In this document: positions 10,614-34,309 of the stretch, in pieces
How positions within the stretch are numbered: the first letter of the stretch is position 1
Layout: every line of letters begins with the position of its first letter
Source: Candidatus Uhrbacteria bacterium
GTDB lineage: Bacteria; Patescibacteriota; Patescibacteriia; JACQSD01
Direction of reading: 5' to 3'
NCBI GenBank assembly: GCA_016206165.1
Contig: JACQSD010000025.1
Location: 1 to 35,326 of the forward strand
Length of the DNA: 35,326 nucleotides
The notes under the pieces: generated by a model
The model's database searches: none
The model's input: only the letters and a program-made list of their open reading frames with translations
Told to the model about the DNA's origin: nothing
Made by a program: the position numbers and the translations under genes

Positions 10614-10973
10614 ATGACACCGTTTCAAGAACAACTTAAAAGCAAGATGCATGCGTATGTGCGATTTGTCTATCGAGTGACGAAGAATTTTCCGCGAGAT
10701 GAAATCTACGGAGTAACATCACAAATAAGACGAGCCGCTGTTTCTATCGTTCTCAATTTTATTGAAGGTTATGCGCGAAGGAAATTGCTCGTGCAGCTGA
10801 ATTTTTTTGAGACGTCGTATGGCTCTCTCCAGGAATCAAAGTATTTACTCCTCCTGTCTTCTGAAGAGGCATATATGACTCAAGATGAATATAAAATTGG
10901 CACGAAGATGGCAGAAGAGATTGGAGCAATGCTTTGGACGGAAATTATTTCTATTGATAAAAGTGCAAAGTGA
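10614..10973 (+). CDS. Four-helix-bundle protein (23S rRNA IVP / bAvd-like family)
   Basis: TKNFPRDEIYGVTSQIRRAAVSIVLNFIEGYAR and SYGSLQE match the family consensus FPxxExyGLxsQxRRAavSixxNIaEG. Confidence 0.9.
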   Translation: MTPFQEQLKSKMHAYVRFVYRVTKNFPRDEIYGVTSQIRRAAVSIVLNFIEGYARRKLLVQLNFFETSYGSLQESKYLLLLSSEEAYMTQDEYKIGTKMAEEIGAMLWTEIISIDKSAK

Positions 10974-11755: not shown

Positions 11756-11801
11756 TCGAGATCGACCTCGTAAAATTAAGTACGTGACACTATTACACGG
11801 T

Positions 11802-13290: not shown

Positions 13291-13944
13291 ATGCGCACGC
13301 TCGCATTCATTGATGCATCAAATCTCTTTTATGGCGGTGAGAAGAGTTTAGGTTGGAAGATTGATTATCAAAAGTTACTCCAGTATCTTCGCGAGAAGTA
13401 TCAGGTTGAGGCCGCATTTTATTTTGGTGGCGTTGAGATACATAATTTTCAATTTGATTACCTTGCGAACGATACAGTACCGATTGATCTGCTCGTGTCG
13501 CATCTCTCGCGACTCGTGCACGAGCGCGGGGACACATTGGATGATGCCGCATTATTGCTCTTGAGTCGACATCTTGCGCGTGTCCGATTCTATGTGCGAC
13601 TGCAAGAGTTCGGTTATCAGCTGCGCCTGAAGCCGGTCAAATTGTATACCAATGATGACGGTACGACTCGGCGGAAGGCCAATTGCGATGTCGACATGAC
13701 ATTTGTTCTCATGAAGGAGCAGGAGCATTTCGATCGCGTCATCATTCTTTCTGGCGATGGAGATTTCTTACCAGTTTTGAAGCATTTACGAAAGGAGGGT
13801 AAGGAGATCATTGTTCTTGCCCGTGGGCCTCGGGCAGCCCGTGAGATTCGACAGTTTGCAGGGGGAAACTTTCGAGATTTTGAGTATCTGAAGTATCTTT
13901 TGAAGATGGAAGATGAAGTAAATAAACGGAGGGGACTCATATAG
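13291..13944 (+). CDS. NYN-domain (LabA/DUF88, PIN-like) nuclease
   Basis: FIDASNL, KANCDVDM and LSGDGDF acidic motifs. Confidence 0.9.
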   Translation: MRTLAFIDASNLFYGGEKSLGWKIDYQKLLQYLREKYQVEAAFYFGGVEIHNFQFDYLANDTVPIDLLVSHLSRLVHERGDTLDDAALLLLSRHLARVRFYVRLQEFGYQLRLKPVKLYTNDDGTTRRKANCDVDMTFVLMKEQEHFDRVIILSGDGDFLPVLKHLRKEGKEIIVLARGPRAAREIRQFAGGNFRDFEYLKYLLKMEDEVNKRRGLI

Positions 13945-18006: not shown

Positions 18007-19239
18007 CTAACTGGTCATGAGGAGCAACCAGTAGAGGACACCGCGCCAGAACTGTTCCGGATCCGGGTTGAACGTCGGGGTGTGGTGGTCCCCCGACTCC
18101 GGACGCTTCGCGCCGAGCATGAAGAAACTTCCCGGCACCTTCTGGAGGTACCACGCGAAGTCTTCACCTCCGAGCTCGAGTCCCTGGGTCTTCGTTTCCT
18201 GACCAGCGCTCTCGAGCAGCGCTTTGACCCCGGCCACGGACTCCGGCGTGTTGATGAGTGCCGGATGCCCGTAGACGTACTCCCAGCCATCGACCACCTT
18301 GTCGTTCTCGATGGCCTCCACCTTCGCGTCCGGGTAGAGCGCGACGATGGCGCGGACGAACGCCTCGAGTTGCTTCGCGAACGCCATGCGTTCGTCCATC
18401 GGAAGGACGTTCCGGTTCGCGAACCACATGTCGACATCCGACGGCCGGATGTTCGATCCGGTTCCCGCCTTGAAGACCGCCGGAACAAGGCTCGAAGGTT
18501 CGGTTCCCCCGAGCGTGCGGAGCGCGAAACCGTTGAGCGCGTTGCAGAGGTGCACGCCGATGTCGATCGCGTTCGAGCCCCGGTGCGGGCTCATGACGTG
18601 ACCGCCCGAACACCGGACGCGAACGCGGAACCGATCCGAGTTCGCCATGGCACCCCCAGGGCGAGCCTGGAAGACGCCGGGAGTTCCTTCCTCGCTCGTC
18701 CAGATGTGGAGGCCATGTGCCGACTCGATGCCGTCGCAGACCCCGCCTTCGAAGACGAGCTTGTATCCCCCCGACGGCGTCACCGGGTTCTCCTCCGCCC
18801 GCTGGAACACGAATCGGAGATTCCTGGACGGCGTTACGCCACATTCGGCCATGGCGAGCATCGCAGCCATGAGCATGGCCGAGTGCACGTCGTGACCGCA
18901 AGCGTGCATGACGCCCGCGTGCTCGGAGGCGAACGAAAGGCCGGTCGCCTCCTGGATCGGAAGAGCATCGACGTCCGCACGGAGCAGACGTCGGGGCAGC
19001 TTCGGGTCGACCGTGTAGTCGATCCAGATCCCACCGTCTCCTTCGACGATTTGCGTCCCGCCGAACTGGAGTTTCGGAAAGATGTCATGGGTGACGCCGT
19101 GGGTGATGTATTCGAGGGTCGTTGTTTCCTCTTGGCTGAAACGGACACCCGGATGCTGGTGCATCCACTGGCGCCACTCTTGCATCCGCGCCACGACGCT
19201 GTGTGCCGCGCCGACGAGGTGCTGCATTTCGGTCAACAT
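18007..19239 (-). CDS. M20 family amidohydrolase (second copy, GC-rich)
   Basis: MHQHP, RADVDALP, MHACGHD, FQRAEE, GLH, GGH, GGEDF, HHTPTF; SD AAGGAG. Confidence 0.92.
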   Translation of the reverse strand: MLTEMQHLVGAAHSVVARMQEWRQWMHQHPGVRFSQEETTTLEYITHGVTHDIFPKLQFGGTQIVEGDGGIWIDYTVDPKLPRRLLRADVDALPIQEATGLSFASEHAGVMHACGHDVHSAMLMAAMLAMAECGVTPSRNLRFVFQRAEENPVTPSGGYKLVFEGGVCDGIESAHGLHIWTSEEGTPGVFQARPGGAMANSDRFRVRVRCSGGHVMSPHRGSNAIDIGVHLCNALNGFALRTLGGTEPSSLVPAVFKAGTGSNIRPSDVDMWFANRNVLPMDERMAFAKQLEAFVRAIVALYPDAKVEAIENDKVVDGWEYVYGHPALINTPESVAGVKALLESAGQETKTQGLELGGEDFAWYLQKVPGSFFMLGAKRPESGDHHTPTFNPDPEQFWRGVLYWLLLMTS

Positions 19240-19392
19240 AATTCCGTACTCCTTCTGTCTGTGGTGGGCATTTTGCCCTGGTTGATCCGCGCCGTTCCAG
19301 GTGAATCTACGATTGTATTCTCAAGCGTCCCTTTCGAAGACGCTGAAATCGGATGAGTTTTGAGAGACCAAACAATAATTCTCCAGCCCGAC

Positions 19393-19421
19393 AATTTACC
19401 ATTTCGTCTCACTATTGTCAA
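19393..19421 (-). promoter_or_regulatory. Sigma70-type promoter for the minus-strand amidohydrolase
   Basis: TTGACA (19421-19416)-17 bp-TAAATT (19398-19393) with TG extension. Confidence 0.6.
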
Positions 19422-19424
19422 GTA

Positions 19425-19467
19425 TTTCGTCAAGTTTTCGTCAAGTTTGTCGAGTTTTCGTCGAGTT
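19425..19467. repeat. ~11-bp tandem repeat, about 4 copies
   Basis: tttcgtcaagt tttcgtcaagt ttgtcgagt tttcgtcgagt. Confidence 0.8.
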
Positions 19468-19553
19468 CTGATTCGTTAACTCCCATACAGAATTTCGATA
19501 CAAGAATATGCCATAAAAGTATAGATCACCAGTACACGTTATAAATTCAACAG

Positions 19554-19587
19554 AACGTCTTTTGATCCGATCGGATCAAAAGACGTT
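19554..19587. repeat. 34-bp perfect palindrome, copy 1
   Basis: aacgtcttttgatccga|tcggatcaaaagacgtt. Confidence 0.97.
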
Positions 19588-19656
19588 TGGTGCAAAGAAT
19601 CGTCGTTTATGATACAATTGTATGCAGAGTATTGAGGTATACCGGTCTCTATCGCT

Positions 19657-20226
19657 ATGCGTAAAAAAGAAGAGAAAAAGCAACTATCACTGACAAAACA
19701 AGTACTATCCTTTATCGCTGCAAAATGCATTGAGGCAGGCGCTGGATTGATCACGGCAACGGTGAACTCCATCGAGTACCCACACGTTTTTCCAGAGTTT
19801 GTGGAAGGTATTCGCGCTGAGCGTGCATATTGGGAGCACAAGCGTGTGCACCGTGCGATACAGGAATTGCACAGGCATAAATTTATTACGATGCGCAAGA
19901 AGGGGAATAAACTCGTCATCCAACTTACTGAAGACGGCCGTATTCATTATCTGCGTCAACAAATACAATGTGCATCTTCATGTATACCTGGAGAATGTAT
20001 TATGGTTACCTTCGATATCCCGGAAGCGGCGCGGAGCGCGCGACTGCATTTCCGTCGTTTTCTGAAAGACTGCAATTTCTATCAATTACAAAAAAGTGTT
20101 TGGGTCTGTGAGAAAGCAGTACTACCAAATTTATTGCAGTTCATTGATATCACGAATGTGGGGCAATGGGTCCACGCGTTTGTTGCCAAAGAAGTCAAAC
20201 ATCCAAAGCTCAAGAAGAAAAAATAA
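19657..20226 (+). CDS. PaaX-like protein: winged-helix segment plus Cas2-like ferredoxin-fold domain
   Basis: RVHRAIQELHRHKFI...IQLTEDG (wHTH wing) followed by VTFDIPE...RRFLK...QLQKSVWV. Confidence 0.85.
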   Translation: MRKKEEKKQLSLTKQVLSFIAAKCIEAGAGLITATVNSIEYPHVFPEFVEGIRAERAYWEHKRVHRAIQELHRHKFITMRKKGNKLVIQLTEDGRIHYLRQQIQCASSCIPGECIMVTFDIPEAARSARLHFRRFLKDCNFYQLQKSVWVCEKAVLPNLLQFIDITNVGQWVHAFVAKEVKHPKLKKKK

Positions 20227-20230
20227 GAGA

Positions 20231-20264
20231 AACGTCTTTTGATCCGATCGGATCAAAAGACGTT
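20231..20264. repeat. 34-bp perfect palindrome, copy 2
   Basis: Identical to 19554-19587; identity extends through tggtg (39-bp direct repeat, to 19592 and 20269). Confidence 0.97.
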
Positions 20265-20289
20265 TGGTGATAATACGCTTTTTATACGT

Positions 20290-21753
20290 ATGAATTTACA
20301 GGAGTTGACTTCGGCGATAAAAAAGGAAGACTGGGAATACCTTGTCGATCGGCGGGAGACGGTGTTGCACCGGTCGTTTACTGCTGCGTGTTACGATTAT
20401 TTTTTTGAGGAGACGGGAATAAAGATTTCTCGAGCGACGGTGGTACGTCCCGGGGGCGACGTGTGGTATCCGCAGAGTGTTCTTGAAAAAGTACGAGAGA
20501 CATTTCGTCGGGGCGGCGTCGCACGATGCCTTGATTTTCAGAAGCGCCTTATCCGAACCGTTCGTGCACTCGACCGATTAGCAACGCGATATGAAAGGCG
20601 AAAATCATTTGCACATTTTTCTGATGTACAATTGCGTCGCATGCTCTCCGAATTTGTCACGTTCACCATTCGTGCGAATGCGTTTCTTCTTCCATTCCCC
20701 GTAGCAGACGGCGTGATTGTCGATCTGATTCGCGCCGAACTCCCTCAAGCCTCGCGAGATCAACAAACAGAATGGATTTGTACGTTGACGTTTCCAGTGA
20801 AAGAGAATGCACATGCGCGTGAGCTGCGATCGCTTCTCATGCTTGCACAGAGGAGTAATGAGCAGCGGATCGTAAAACATCGTCAGCGTTTTTCATGGAT
20901 TGGCGCGCGGGGGCTTTGGTGGCAGGATGCATGGACGCCGGCGATGATCCGTGCGCGCATTCATGCTTCCCACGCTGCAGGGAAGAATCCAGTAGAGGTG
21001 ATTGCAGAGCAGCGCGCAGTGCGTCGAGCAATCATGTATGACGCACGTCGTCTTACGCAGACGCTCGCGATCAAACATGGATCACGCCTTGCGAAGCTGA
21101 TCGCGATCGCGCGTGACTATGCATATCTCCGCACATGGCGTACTGATGTTGTCTATGGATCGAGTTATCGCGCGCGTGGATTGTTCCAGGAACTTGCACG
21201 GCGGAGTCATGTTGATTATTTTCACCTTCCGTATCTGACGTTTCAAGAATTTCAGGAACTCGTTCTTACGTTTCGATTTCCGATTACTCAACAGGAGCTG
21301 CGTCGTCGCATTGCCGCAGGCAAGGATTATCTCGTGACGATTCGTTGTGGACGCGAGTATTTTGTATACACGGGAAAGCGATGGGTTGCATATTTTCAAA
21401 AACTTGTGCGTGGCAATACACAACAATCACGCGTGACCGCAGTGCGAGGAAGCATTGCATATCCCGGCGTGGTTCGTGGGCGGGCGCGGATTGTGCTATC
21501 AACAGACGATTTGTCCAAAGTACGCCGGGGTGATATTCTCGTTGCAGTGATGACGTTTCCTAATTTCATCCCCGCGATGGAAAAAGCAGCAGCATTTGTA
21601 ACCGATGAAGGGGGTATTCTCTGCCACGCATCGATCGTCTCTCGTGAAATGGGAAAACCGTGCGTCATTGGGACAAAGTCGGCGACCACAGTGTTTCGCG
21701 ATGGAGATCGCATTGAAGTTGATGCAACGCATTGTATTGTGAGAAAACTATGA
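20290..21753 (+). CDS. Paralogue 3: N-terminal domain plus phospho-His swivel domain
   Basis: VTDEGGILCHASIVSREMGKPCVIG; start moved to ATG 20290. Confidence 0.9.
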   Translation: MNLQELTSAIKKEDWEYLVDRRETVLHRSFTAACYDYFFEETGIKISRATVVRPGGDVWYPQSVLEKVRETFRRGGVARCLDFQKRLIRTVRALDRLATRYERRKSFAHFSDVQLRRMLSEFVTFTIRANAFLLPFPVADGVIVDLIRAELPQASRDQQTEWICTLTFPVKENAHARELRSLLMLAQRSNEQRIVKHRQRFSWIGARGLWWQDAWTPAMIRARIHASHAAGKNPVEVIAEQRAVRRAIMYDARRLTQTLAIKHGSRLAKLIAIARDYAYLRTWRTDVVYGSSYRARGLFQELARRSHVDYFHLPYLTFQEFQELVLTFRFPITQQELRRRIAAGKDYLVTIRCGREYFVYTGKRWVAYFQKLVRGNTQQSRVTAVRGSIAYPGVVRGRARIVLSTDDLSKVRRGDILVAVMTFPNFIPAMEKAAAFVTDEGGILCHASIVSREMGKPCVIGTKSATTVFRDGDRIEVDATHCIVRKL

Positions 21754-32815: not shown

Positions 32816-33766
32816 ATGGCTCAAAGTTACATTAAATTTTTTAAGGAGATATCAAAGAAGGACGTCCACATCGCCGGTGGGAAGGGGGCGTCGTTGGGTG
32901 AAATGACGCAGGCGGGGATTCCAGTGCCGCCGGGGTTTGTGTTGACCGCAGCAGCATTTGATCGGTTTATCGAGGAGACGGATCTTGATGTGGAGATCGA
33001 GGCGATATTGAACAAGGTGAACTATAAAGATGTAAACTCGGTGGATCGGGCGTCGAACGTGATTCGTGATCTCATCCACGATGAACGCATGCCAAAGGAT
33101 TTGCAGACGGATATTCTGGGAGCATTCAAGCAATTGAAGGCGAAGGAAGTTGCCGTGCGTTCATCCGCAACGGCAGAGGATTCCTCACAGGCGTCGTGGG
33201 CAGGGGAGCTGGAGACATATCTCAACTCAACAGAAAAGAATGTGATCGGAAATGTGAAAAAATGCTGGTCATCGCTTTTTACTCCGCGCGCCATTTTTTA
33301 TCGGAATGAAAAGGGAATGCGCAAAACAAAGGTGAGTGTGGCGGTCGTGGTGCAGGCGATGATTCAGTCGGAAATTTCAGGTGTCATGTTTACGGTGCAT
33401 CCGGTAACAAAGGATCGGAACCAGATGATTATCGAGGCGGCCTGGGGTTTGGGGGAGGCGCTGGTCTCCGGGCAGGTGACGCCGGATAGTTATGTCGTGA
33501 GTAAACGCGATTGGTCGCTCATTGATGTAAGCGTTGCGGAGCAGGCGCGGATGATCGCGCGAAAGACGCTTGGCACCGGAGTTGAATGGAAGCCGGTGCC
33601 AAAAAAAGACGCGCCGAAACAAAAATTGAATGGGAAGGAAATCGTGATCATTGCGCAAATTGGGAAGAAAATCGAGGAGCACTACGGCAAGCCGGAGGAC
33701 ATCGAATGGGCGTATGCAAAGAAAAAGTTCTACATTGTCCAATCCAGGCCGATTACGACGCTGTAG
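32816..33766 (+). CDS. Stand-alone ATP-grasp (PPDK_N) domain of the PEP synthase/PPDK/RPH family
   Basis: GGKGASLGEM, PVPPGF, AVRSSATAED, VVVQAMI, SGVMFT, WGLGEALVSG, DIEWA, QSRPITTL then stop at the domain boundary. Confidence 0.93.
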   Translation: MAQSYIKFFKEISKKDVHIAGGKGASLGEMTQAGIPVPPGFVLTAAAFDRFIEETDLDVEIEAILNKVNYKDVNSVDRASNVIRDLIHDERMPKDLQTDILGAFKQLKAKEVAVRSSATAEDSSQASWAGELETYLNSTEKNVIGNVKKCWSSLFTPRAIFYRNEKGMRKTKVSVAVVVQAMIQSEISGVMFTVHPVTKDRNQMIIEAAWGLGEALVSGQVTPDSYVVSKRDWSLIDVSVAEQARMIARKTLGTGVEWKPVPKKDAPKQKLNGKEIVIIAQIGKKIEEHYGKPEDIEWAYAKKKFYIVQSRPITTL

Positions 33767-33822: not shown

Positions 33823-34065
33823 ATGAAGAATCATAAGACACAATATCATTTACCAGTAATCATCGAGCGCGATGAATCAGGTTATTACGTAGGAATTGTT
33901 CCGACGCTCCGGAGTTGCTATACACAGGCAAAAACACTGCCAGAACTGTATCGTCGGCTACAGGAAGTTGCGGCATTATCTATTGAAGCAGAGAAGGAAT
34001 TATTTGGTGGCAAAGTGGAACAGAATGAATTTATCGGAGTACATCAGTTGGAATTCAGCACGTAA
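33823..34065 (+). CDS. hicB: HicB-family antitoxin (short, no DNA-binding domain)
   Basis: PVIIERDESGYYVGIVPTLRSCYTQAKTLPEL. Confidence 0.85.
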   Translation: MKNHKTQYHLPVIIERDESGYYVGIVPTLRSCYTQAKTLPELYRRLQEVAALSIEAEKELFGGKVEQNEFIGVHQLEFST

Positions 34066-34069
34066 TGCT

Positions 34070-34309
34070 GTGCCAAGAATTCTACCGATTCATCCACGGA
34101 AGATGATGCGGATGCTCGAGCATCTCGGGTATCGTATTGTACGCATCCGTGGAAGCCATCATTTTTTCTTCAATACAATGACGAGACGAACAACATCGAT
34201 TCCACTGCATGGAGGTGAGGAGCTTGGTATTGGATTGATCAAACAGATATTGCGTGACATCGAGGTATCAGCTGAGGAATATGATACGCTTCGAAAGGAA
34301 GTCTCGTAG
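34070..34309 (+). CDS. hicA: HicA-family toxin
   Basis: GTG start MPRIL; LEHLGY..VRIRGSHHFF...IPLHG.EELGIGLIKQILRD. Confidence 0.88.
   Translation: MPRILPIHPRKMMRMLEHLGYRIVRIRGSHHFFFNTMTRRTTSIPLHGGEELGIGLIKQILRDIEVSAEEYDTLRKEVS

Follow-up and report, generated by a model that had tools for sequence, protein, structure and literature searches.

A truncated PaaX-like gene bracketed by identical perfect palindromes in a Candidatus Uhrbacteria genome

In a 35,326-nucleotide contig of Candidatus Uhrbacteria bacterium, an ultra-small bacterium from groundwater (JACQSD010000025.1 of assembly GCA_016206165.1), a single short gene is enclosed by two identical 34-bp perfect palindromes. This gene, here called mini-PaaX, encodes a truncated relative of PaaX, which is the phenylacetyl-CoA-responsive repressor of E. 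coli and Pseudomonas. The whole contig is referred to below as the window; it is contig C5 of its genome, which comprises 836 kb in 92 contigs and has a completeness of 83%. An earlier note, made from the sequence of the window alone, had drawn attention to the locus, and its claims are taken up where our results bear on them. Literature searches found no description of palindrome-bracketed PaaX-like or Cas2-like genes.

Anatomy of the bracketed gene

The window contains two copies of the 34-bp palindrome and no more (19554-19587 and 20231-20264), and 0 matches to it were found when the window was shuffled 100 times. Both copies sit within a 39-nt direct repeat (19554-19592 and 20231-20269, with a spacing of 677 nt), just as the earlier note had claimed, and copy 2 extends to a perfect palindrome of 36 bp (20230-20265). 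Only one open reading frame (ORF) lies between the two copies, at 19657-20226, and it encodes a protein of 189 amino acids (aa). The distances claimed for the two copies hold up on measurement: copy 1 is 69 nt from the ATG of the mini-PaaX gene, and copy 2 begins 4 nt after its stop codon (3 nt for the 36-bp version). Likewise, copy 2 does lie just before the following gene, which encodes a PEP-utilizers domain and whose ATG (20290) is 25 nt away.

Copy 1 ends 2 nt 5' of a putative -35 hexamer (19590-19595), which is followed, after a 17-nt spacer, by a second promoter-like hexamer (19613-19618) with a TG 1 nt 5' of it. As single-stranded DNA, copy 1 folds at -17.2 kcal/mol (z = -6.9) and copy 2 at -16.4 kcal/mol (z = -8.2). 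The features of the locus are listed here.

19554-19592, no strand: palindrome copy 1, made up of the 34-bp perfect palindrome at 19554-19587 and 5 bases in common with copy 2
19590-19618, + strand: putative promoter, with a weak -35 hexamer, a 17-nt spacer, and TG plus a -10 hexamer; it falls below the scan threshold
19657-20226, + strand: mini-PaaX gene, 189 aa, with a winged helix at residues ~12-104 and a Cas2-like PaaX_M domain at ~113-178
20230-20269, no strand: palindrome copy 2, made up of the 36-bp perfect palindrome at 20230-20265, with the 39-bp repeat at 20231-20269

The sequencing runs that hold the window DNA are groundwater metagenomes, and we examined the Logan contigs of four runs from one groundwater study. 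Three pieces that together cover the locus (18800-19583, 19563-20259 and 20240-21000) are present in the contigs of three samples at similar depth (11.4, 10.4 and 10.9, respectively, in sample X1). Therefore, the duplication of the palindrome is real as far as these data go, and an assembly artefact, which the earlier note had named as grounds for discarding its proposal, is unlikely. Every Logan contig breaks inside the palindromes, and the order and orientation of the middle piece have no independent confirmation from them. Between the upstream gene and copy 1, the window also carries an 11-bp unit repeated 4.7 times in tandem (19417-19467), a period of about one helical turn.

The protein and the bracket layout among its relatives

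Mini-PaaX matches the Pfam model PaaX_M (PF20803; 51.1 bits with a cut-off of 24, E 1.5e-13) and the Pfam model CRISPR_Cas2 (4.8e-6, 27.1 bits against a cut-off of 23.8), and together these matches cover residues 115-183. It falls below threshold for the NCBIfam Cas2 model TIGR01573 (21.1 against a cut-off of 24.5). A Pfam winged-helix match is sub-threshold, and no Pfam winged-helix model scores above its cut-off; the AlphaFold2 model computed from 37 homologues (mean pLDDT 86) has helices and a wing hairpin in residues 12-104. When this model was compared with the PDB using Foldseek, the top match was E. coli PaaX (8a39; E 3e-5, 173 columns aligned), followed by the PaaX-like structures 3l09 and 3kfw, and Cas2 chains matched the C-terminal half. 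Furthermore, the mini-PaaX family profile matches PaaX residues 55-112. No match to PaaX_C was found in mini-PaaX, which ends at residue 189, and TIGR02277 (the PaaX equivalog) does not match it at all. Because it has no PaaX C-terminal domain and no equivalog match, and because it stays below the NCBIfam Cas2 cut-off, mini-PaaX is a truncated relative of PaaX and is neither PaaX nor Cas2.

The acidic residue of an FDI motif and the QKSV motif that had been pointed out behind the winged helix are both present, as F119-D120-I121 and Q145-K-S147-V148-W149. In the 37 homologues, D120, R129, R133, L136, S147 and W149 are invariant; in the alignment as a whole, it is the Cas2-like part that is conserved, with variation in the N-terminal part. 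A homodimer prediction scored 0.22 against a mark of 0.42, which gives no verdict and counts neither for nor against any of the readings compared below. An 89%-identical relative, P0002, exists, and a search of genome contigs for related loci returned a single one (L056, 30% identical).

Of 401 genomes sampled from the class, 51 have homologues of mini-PaaX, at most 8 in any one of them; of 401 genomes sampled from the phylum, 102 have PaaX_M genes, the maximum being 12 in a genome of ~1 Mb. A profile search of 1.84 billion representatives gave 6230 clusters (50% identity) at E <= 0.001, mostly of 170-190 aa. The flanks of homologues were then surveyed for palindromes, as the earlier note had proposed. 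We scored a perfect palindrome with a stem of at least 12 and a loop of at most 2 in the 200 nt before or the 150 nt after each gene. The class set comprised 36 loci, including the mini-PaaX gene and a paralogue on contig C90 of the same genome, and the controls were 624 genes of the same genome as the window, including the mini-PaaX gene and a second paralogue on contig C27.

The layout recurs, and the palindromes differ from relative to relative. A flanking palindrome was found at 20/36 class loci compared to 17/624 control genes, and palindromes on both sides at 5/36 compared to 1/624, that one control being the mini-PaaX gene itself. At least one 11-mer is common to both flanks at 26/36 class loci compared to 37/624 controls. 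Within the same class loci, 27 palindromes fall in the 13.6 kb of flanking sequence and 2 in the other 99 kb. In 30 independent loci drawn from elsewhere in the phylum, a palindrome was found at 9/30, palindromes on both sides at 2/30 and common 11-mers at 14/30; the palindromes numbered 11 in 11.5 kb of flank and 2 in 81 kb outside the flanks. This set includes six longer proteins (236-249 aa), all of them without a flank palindrome. All four paralogues of the complete genome G179 have bracketing sites, of which two are quasi-palindromic only and one is a 35-bp repeat that lacks symmetry.

The 22-bp core of the mini-PaaX palindrome was also found in 17 metagenome stretches, representing about 12 distinct places, mostly in contigs with a GC content of 0.58-0.60. 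In these contigs, the core brackets a full-length PaaX-like gene (L070, 9245-10030), with one copy overlapping the stop codon, and so the bracket layout extends beyond short proteins. The other core copies in these contigs are mostly divergent or tandem intergenic and lie near gene starts, which resembles a putative regulon of a repressor. In the same group of contigs (L057-L073), this putative regulon consists of 32-42-bp perfect palindromes before large genes, and the ORF that ends just upstream of the regulator is putatively glycoside-hydrolase-like, judging from its translation.

Site grammar, solo copies and neighbourhood

Site grammar was derived from the 21 loci with a perfect palindrome, with positions counted outward from the centre. 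These palindromes range from 22 to 46 bp, with a median of 38. G occupies position 3 in 21/21, with C at position 2 in 20/21 and T or C at position 1 in 20/21; because these three positions are nearly invariant, the centre is mostly CGATCG or CGGCCG. Positions 4-8 are variable, and only A or T is seen at positions 9-10 of the 21 loci. This half-site pattern fits a conserved part of the protein that would read the centre and a variable helix that would read positions 4-8. In modules whose two sites lack symmetry, the sites are arranged either as direct or as inverted copies, more commonly as direct ones. The downstream site is usually no more than about 10 nt from the stop codon, or overlaps it.

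The two further PaaX_M genes in the genome, at C90:36488-37081 (35% identical to mini-PaaX) and C27:4307-5116, are also bracketed, and the palindrome is a different one for each of the three genes. At the C90 gene, a 16-bp palindromic core precedes the likely start by 14 nt, and a 28-bp version follows the stop codon at a distance of 49 nt. The C27 gene encodes a protein of 269 aa that does have PaaX_C but scores only 65 bits with TIGR02277 (cut-off 264); a 42-bp perfect palindrome lies 22 nt before its start, and a partial second copy lies about 130 nt after its stop codon.

Palindromes of this kind are also found away from the genes. The 22-bp core of the mini-PaaX palindrome occurs at C23:5815-5844 and C86:749-784 as well (0 matches with a reversed-pattern control), and C61:6131-6152 is a variant of it with paired changes. 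The core is thus present at five places in the genome, three of them away from the mini-PaaX gene, as counted in an incomplete genome whose contigs break at such repeats. There are 3 solo copies of the mini-PaaX core and 4 of the core of the C90 paralogue; the corresponding numbers in the complete genome G179 are 2 and 4. Searches of the C86 and C57 loci with Rfam gave no match.

This genome is rich in intergenic repeats of other kinds. A second hairpin family, with a conserved stem of ~17-20 bp and loops of 1-7 nt, occupies about 13 mostly intergenic places on contigs C13, C23, C28, C30, C35, C49, C68, C81, C84 and C90; it lacks the CG centre and is not near any PaaX_M gene. A third palindrome family (C23:21684-21722, C28:14913-14948, C61:4152-4186, C70:4689-4729 and C3:14865-14900) lies mostly within long ORFs of 415-957 aa, according to crude gene calls. 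In addition, other short repeat families bracket ordinary genes at C48:1427-1912, C61:1169-2377, C28:9033-10004 and C35:9825-11177, whose translations are putatively ribosomal protein S7-, tyrosyl-tRNA synthetase-, formyltransferase- and glycosyltransferase-like, respectively.

No conserved neighbourhood accompanies the bracketed genes. The 29 proteins of the window have no homologue in the flanks of the other 35 class loci, and the 199 neighbour ORFs of 66 loci include no recurring family, the largest cluster being present at 3/66 loci. The upstream neighbour of mini-PaaX has no homologue in the two other genomes of the family. Because there is neither a conserved neighbourhood nor a recurrent neighbour family, the unit consists of the gene and its pair of sites, and the nearby dikinase-like genes in the window are incidental. 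The control of dikinase genes that had been suggested for this locus therefore finds no support as a general rule, even though copy 2 does precede one such gene here.

These neighbours are about ten paralogous genes between 11784 and 31399 that encode proteins of 380-500 aa with a PEP-utilizers swivel domain at the end and unassigned N-terminal parts (starts at 11784, 14052, 20290, 21732, 24031, 25849, 27037, 28488 and 29963, and possibly 17968). A separate 316-aa gene at 32816-33766 has only a PPDK_N ATP-grasp domain, and together these genes look like a split dikinase system with many swivel-domain partners. Elsewhere in the window are a bAvd/23S-rRNA-intervening-sequence-like gene, an NYN-domain gene and a HicA-domain ORF (10614-10973, 13291-13944 and 33896-34309, respectively).

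Two pairs of orthologous modules were compared. L026 and L027, from two species of one genus, have a common downstream neighbourhood; the bases beside the centre of their sites differ, and these changes are mirrored within each site. A second pair, in genomes G013 and G129, appears to lie at a roughly syntenic place, as suggested by a match of G129:C93 beside both G013 modules. A genus-level comparison around the two G013 modules revealed no empty site, and the many short matches that it returned belong to other repeat families. Because both ortholog pairs are at or near syntenic places, we read these modules as products of descent with rapid symmetric change rather than of movement. Genomes of this genus, another one of the class, contain short dispersed elements of 35-45 bp in tens of copies (L169 4137-4270 and L170 3545-3590 in G013, with dozens of matches in G080 and G129), which are unrelated to the mini-PaaX palindromes.

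Possible roles of the palindromes

We consider it moderately probable that mini-PaaX is a self-repressor, a truncated protein of the PaaX type that binds as a dimer to the palindromes around its gene. This explanation is the best supported because of the length of the palindrome, the position of copy 1 at a putative promoter, the fold and the shared site grammar. Binding, the dimeric state, repression and looping are what we infer, and the mechanism might operate as follows. The winged helix, which would contact DNA, is joined to a Cas2-like domain, the latter being the dimerisation part in PaaX, and there is no effector-binding C-terminal domain. The palindrome would be the cognate site of a symmetric dimer, and the core of this site may span ~12 bp on each side of the centre, which is the part common to all five copies in the genome. 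Since copy 1 abuts what appears to be the gene's own promoter, its occupation would lead to self-repression. Copy 2, at the stop codon, would be a second bound site that together with copy 1 could enclose the gene in a loop of ~680 bp, or that could stop transcription from crossing the boundary of the gene, be it towards the following gene or antisense.

Known systems offer partial parallels. Like mini-PaaX, PaaX itself has a winged helix followed by a Cas2-like middle domain. According to a review (PMC9493321), the binding site of E. coli PaaX totals 39 bp and consists of two inverted 6-bp half-sites with 27 bp between them, and the protein represses its own Px promoter; here, a 34-36-bp palindrome lies by a putative promoter. 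Moreover, the palindrome at L023 carries both E. coli PaaX half-site hexamers, spaced by 26 bp. In contrast to PaaX, mini-PaaX lacks the C-terminal effector domain and any equivalog match, and there are no paa genes near it in the window. Its sites are perfect palindromes through the centre and are found on both sides of the gene, and there are up to 8-12 mini-PaaX or PaaX_M paralogues per tiny genome.

A second parallel is provided by phage lambda, whose cI repressor gene lies between OR and OL, operator regions that loop together. The mini-PaaX gene would likewise be a self-regulating repressor gene enclosed by its own sites, whereas its fold is unrelated to that of cI, it has one palindrome per side instead of operator triplets, and it has no phage context.

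Several observations weigh against self-repression as a full account. The first concerns the promoter claimed in the earlier note: its hexamers and 17-nt spacer are indeed present, but a consensus promoter scan of the + strand lists no promoter upstream of the mini-PaaX gene. The match is weak, and it is missing from the scan because the first hexamer agrees at only 3/6 positions. Second, the symmetry of the sites is perfect beyond any protein's need. There is no mismatch in 37 of 47 flanking palindromes, and the outer arms differ among the five genome copies, yet each copy is a perfect palindrome of 30-36 bp. Differences between copies presumed to be bound by the same protein are mirrored within each copy (L025, L022 and L027, and an extra site of p1 in G179 at 86081). 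Third, a Mantel test of protein distance against half-site distance, which addresses the co-variation of palindrome and protein that the earlier note had suggested as a check, was not significant (r 0.04-0.13, p 0.05-0.30) with 21 loci that afford no power.

The placement of the copies is a further difficulty. Among the 17 loci that have a perfect palindrome downstream, 9 are followed by a convergent gene, and in these the downstream copy therefore cannot act as an operator for the following gene. Solo copies often lie between convergent genes as well (C86, C19:7440 and C23:2448, and 3/6 in G179). The copy at C23:5815-5844, a 30-bp perfect palindrome, is even located in-frame within an RNA-methyltransferase-like ORF, where it occupies a variable, indel-rich loop. 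The encoded protein is 10 aa longer than its same-family orthologue (30 nt, the length of the palindrome), but two other orthologues differ in length by only 3-4 aa. Finally, PaaX is without the invariant Cas2-motif residues, as judged from a weak alignment of the C27 paralogue with E. coli PaaX (E 0.0066). Because the motif is invariant here and seemingly is not kept in E. coli PaaX, the Cas2-like domain may have a role beyond dimerisation.

A self-repressor thus leaves unexplained the mirrored variable positions, the site at the stop codon where no gene follows, the solo copies, the lack of conserved targets and the invariant Cas2 motif, and these points fit a structure-recognising element of the REP/RAYT type better. 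The earlier suggestion of a product that recognises the palindromes beside its gene is supported in kind, given the PaaX-like structure, the known autorepression by PaaX and the recurrence of the layout with its own palindromes; plain binding to an operator does not account for the solo copies and the symmetry.

In REP/RAYT systems (REPtrons), a gene lies between two copies of a palindromic element that also occurs solo in intergenic positions, in many cases where genes end. The element is specific to the gene lineage, RAYT is an HUH/Y1 transposase and REP palindromes are imperfect. The mini-PaaX modules share the gene flanked by two palindrome copies, the solo copies at gene ends and the lineage-specific element. 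They differ in the few solo copies counted here, in their perfect palindromes and in showing no evidence of movement. Furthermore, domain searches revealed no HUH/Y1 transposase between the repeats, but only PaaX_M, Cas2 and weak winged-helix matches.

By analogy, the module could be selfish, a possibility that is in line with the mobile cassette or cruciform cutting put forward in the earlier note and that we regard as doubtful but worth weighing: the protein would recognise the hairpin or cruciform of its own palindrome, and the Cas2-type acidic site would nick or process it. Such processing would keep the arms identical and seed solo copies at gene ends, and the gene would travel or persist with its two palindromes. 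This possibility would account for the palindrome family and solo copies that each paralogue has, for the solos between convergent genes, at 3' ends or inside a gene, and for the mirrored differences and prevailing perfection of the sites. It would also suit the lack of any recurrent partner or target gene, the absence of a conserved neighbourhood, and a Cas2 motif that is invariant although E. coli PaaX seems to be without it.

However, the whole module is never repeated within a genome, the paralogues being only ~35% identical, and the two sister-species ortholog pairs point to vertical descent. In the contigs of the four runs, we saw no joint that skips the mini-PaaX gene, and thus none of the empty single-palindrome alleles or circles that the earlier note had proposed to look for, although rare empty, inverted or circular forms are invisible in contigs. 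The solo copies are few rather than tens to hundreds, and no mini-PaaX homologue was matched in phage and plasmid collections. In addition, a G+C-rich centre is a poor site for cruciform extrusion, and Cas2 alone is not known to be a recombinase. It is an unlikely generalisation that the mini-PaaX class consists of single-gene palindrome-associated elements whose intact Cas2-motif domain acts on the extruded hairpin or cruciform of their own palindrome, and that this action keeps the arms identical, duplicates the site around the gene, and seeds solos at gene ends and occasionally within genes.

It is quite improbable that the palindromes act alone, unbound by protein, as insulators, terminators or border RNA hairpins that isolate the gene from its neighbours. 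The downstream copy is at the stop codon in most loci, a terminator scan found copy 2 to be terminator-like on the minus strand, T runs follow copies of the palindrome of the C90 paralogue, and many other intergenic repeat and hairpin families surround ordinary genes in this genome, all of which would agree with such a role. However, the minus-strand flag of copy 2 is the only one in that scan: neither copy was flagged on the + strand, where an intrinsic terminator of the gene would show a G+C-rich hairpin and then a run of T. A T-rich tail follows at most 3/21 downstream palindromes, as judged by eye. Among 877 base pairs there are 17 mismatches (4 G:T, 3 A:C and 10 other), and this absence of a G:T excess (G:U in RNA) means that there is no support for a sense-RNA hairpin. 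Moreover, generic terminators would be neither paralogue-specific nor share a centre and A/T-tract grammar across the phylum, such perfect palindromes are ~20 times rarer beside other genes, and one copy lies inside a coding region.

Mini-PaaX resembles CRISPR Cas2 in its ferredoxin-like fold, in an acidic residue that follows strand 1 and in its Q-x-S-V-aromatic motif, and it differs in being fused to a winged helix, in having no cas1 or array and in its score below the NCBIfam cut-off. The one-spacer array suggested in the earlier note, that is, a remnant or minimal CRISPR-like unit in which a Cas2-containing integrase duplicated the repeat around an inserted segment, is extremely improbable and was rejected: the C-terminal half does match Cas2 models and a whole palindromic repeat is duplicated around a segment, but no Cas1 was matched in the 836-kb genome at 83% completeness (the search control was positive in 7/14 known genomes), what would be the spacer is at every locus a gene, conserved and of one family, and the best structural match of the whole protein is PaaX.

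For the annotation of the window, these results mean that the bracketed gene is neither Cas2 nor a phenylacetate regulator. The family to which it belongs is large, as the 6230 clusters and the presence of PaaX_M in 102/401 genomes of the phylum indicate. If the Cas2-type site were active on folded palindromes, mini-PaaX would represent a new repeat-propagating element with a bearing on the origin of Cas2; such elements would be a functional counterpart of REP/RAYT on a different fold and could be a relative of the ancestor of Cas2. If the bracketing palindromes are instead binding sites, as a self-repressing dimer would require, then the cognate sites of thousands of uncharacterised DNA-binding proteins could be read directly from genomes, and this would provide a rare natural data set for protein-DNA recognition in unculturable organisms.

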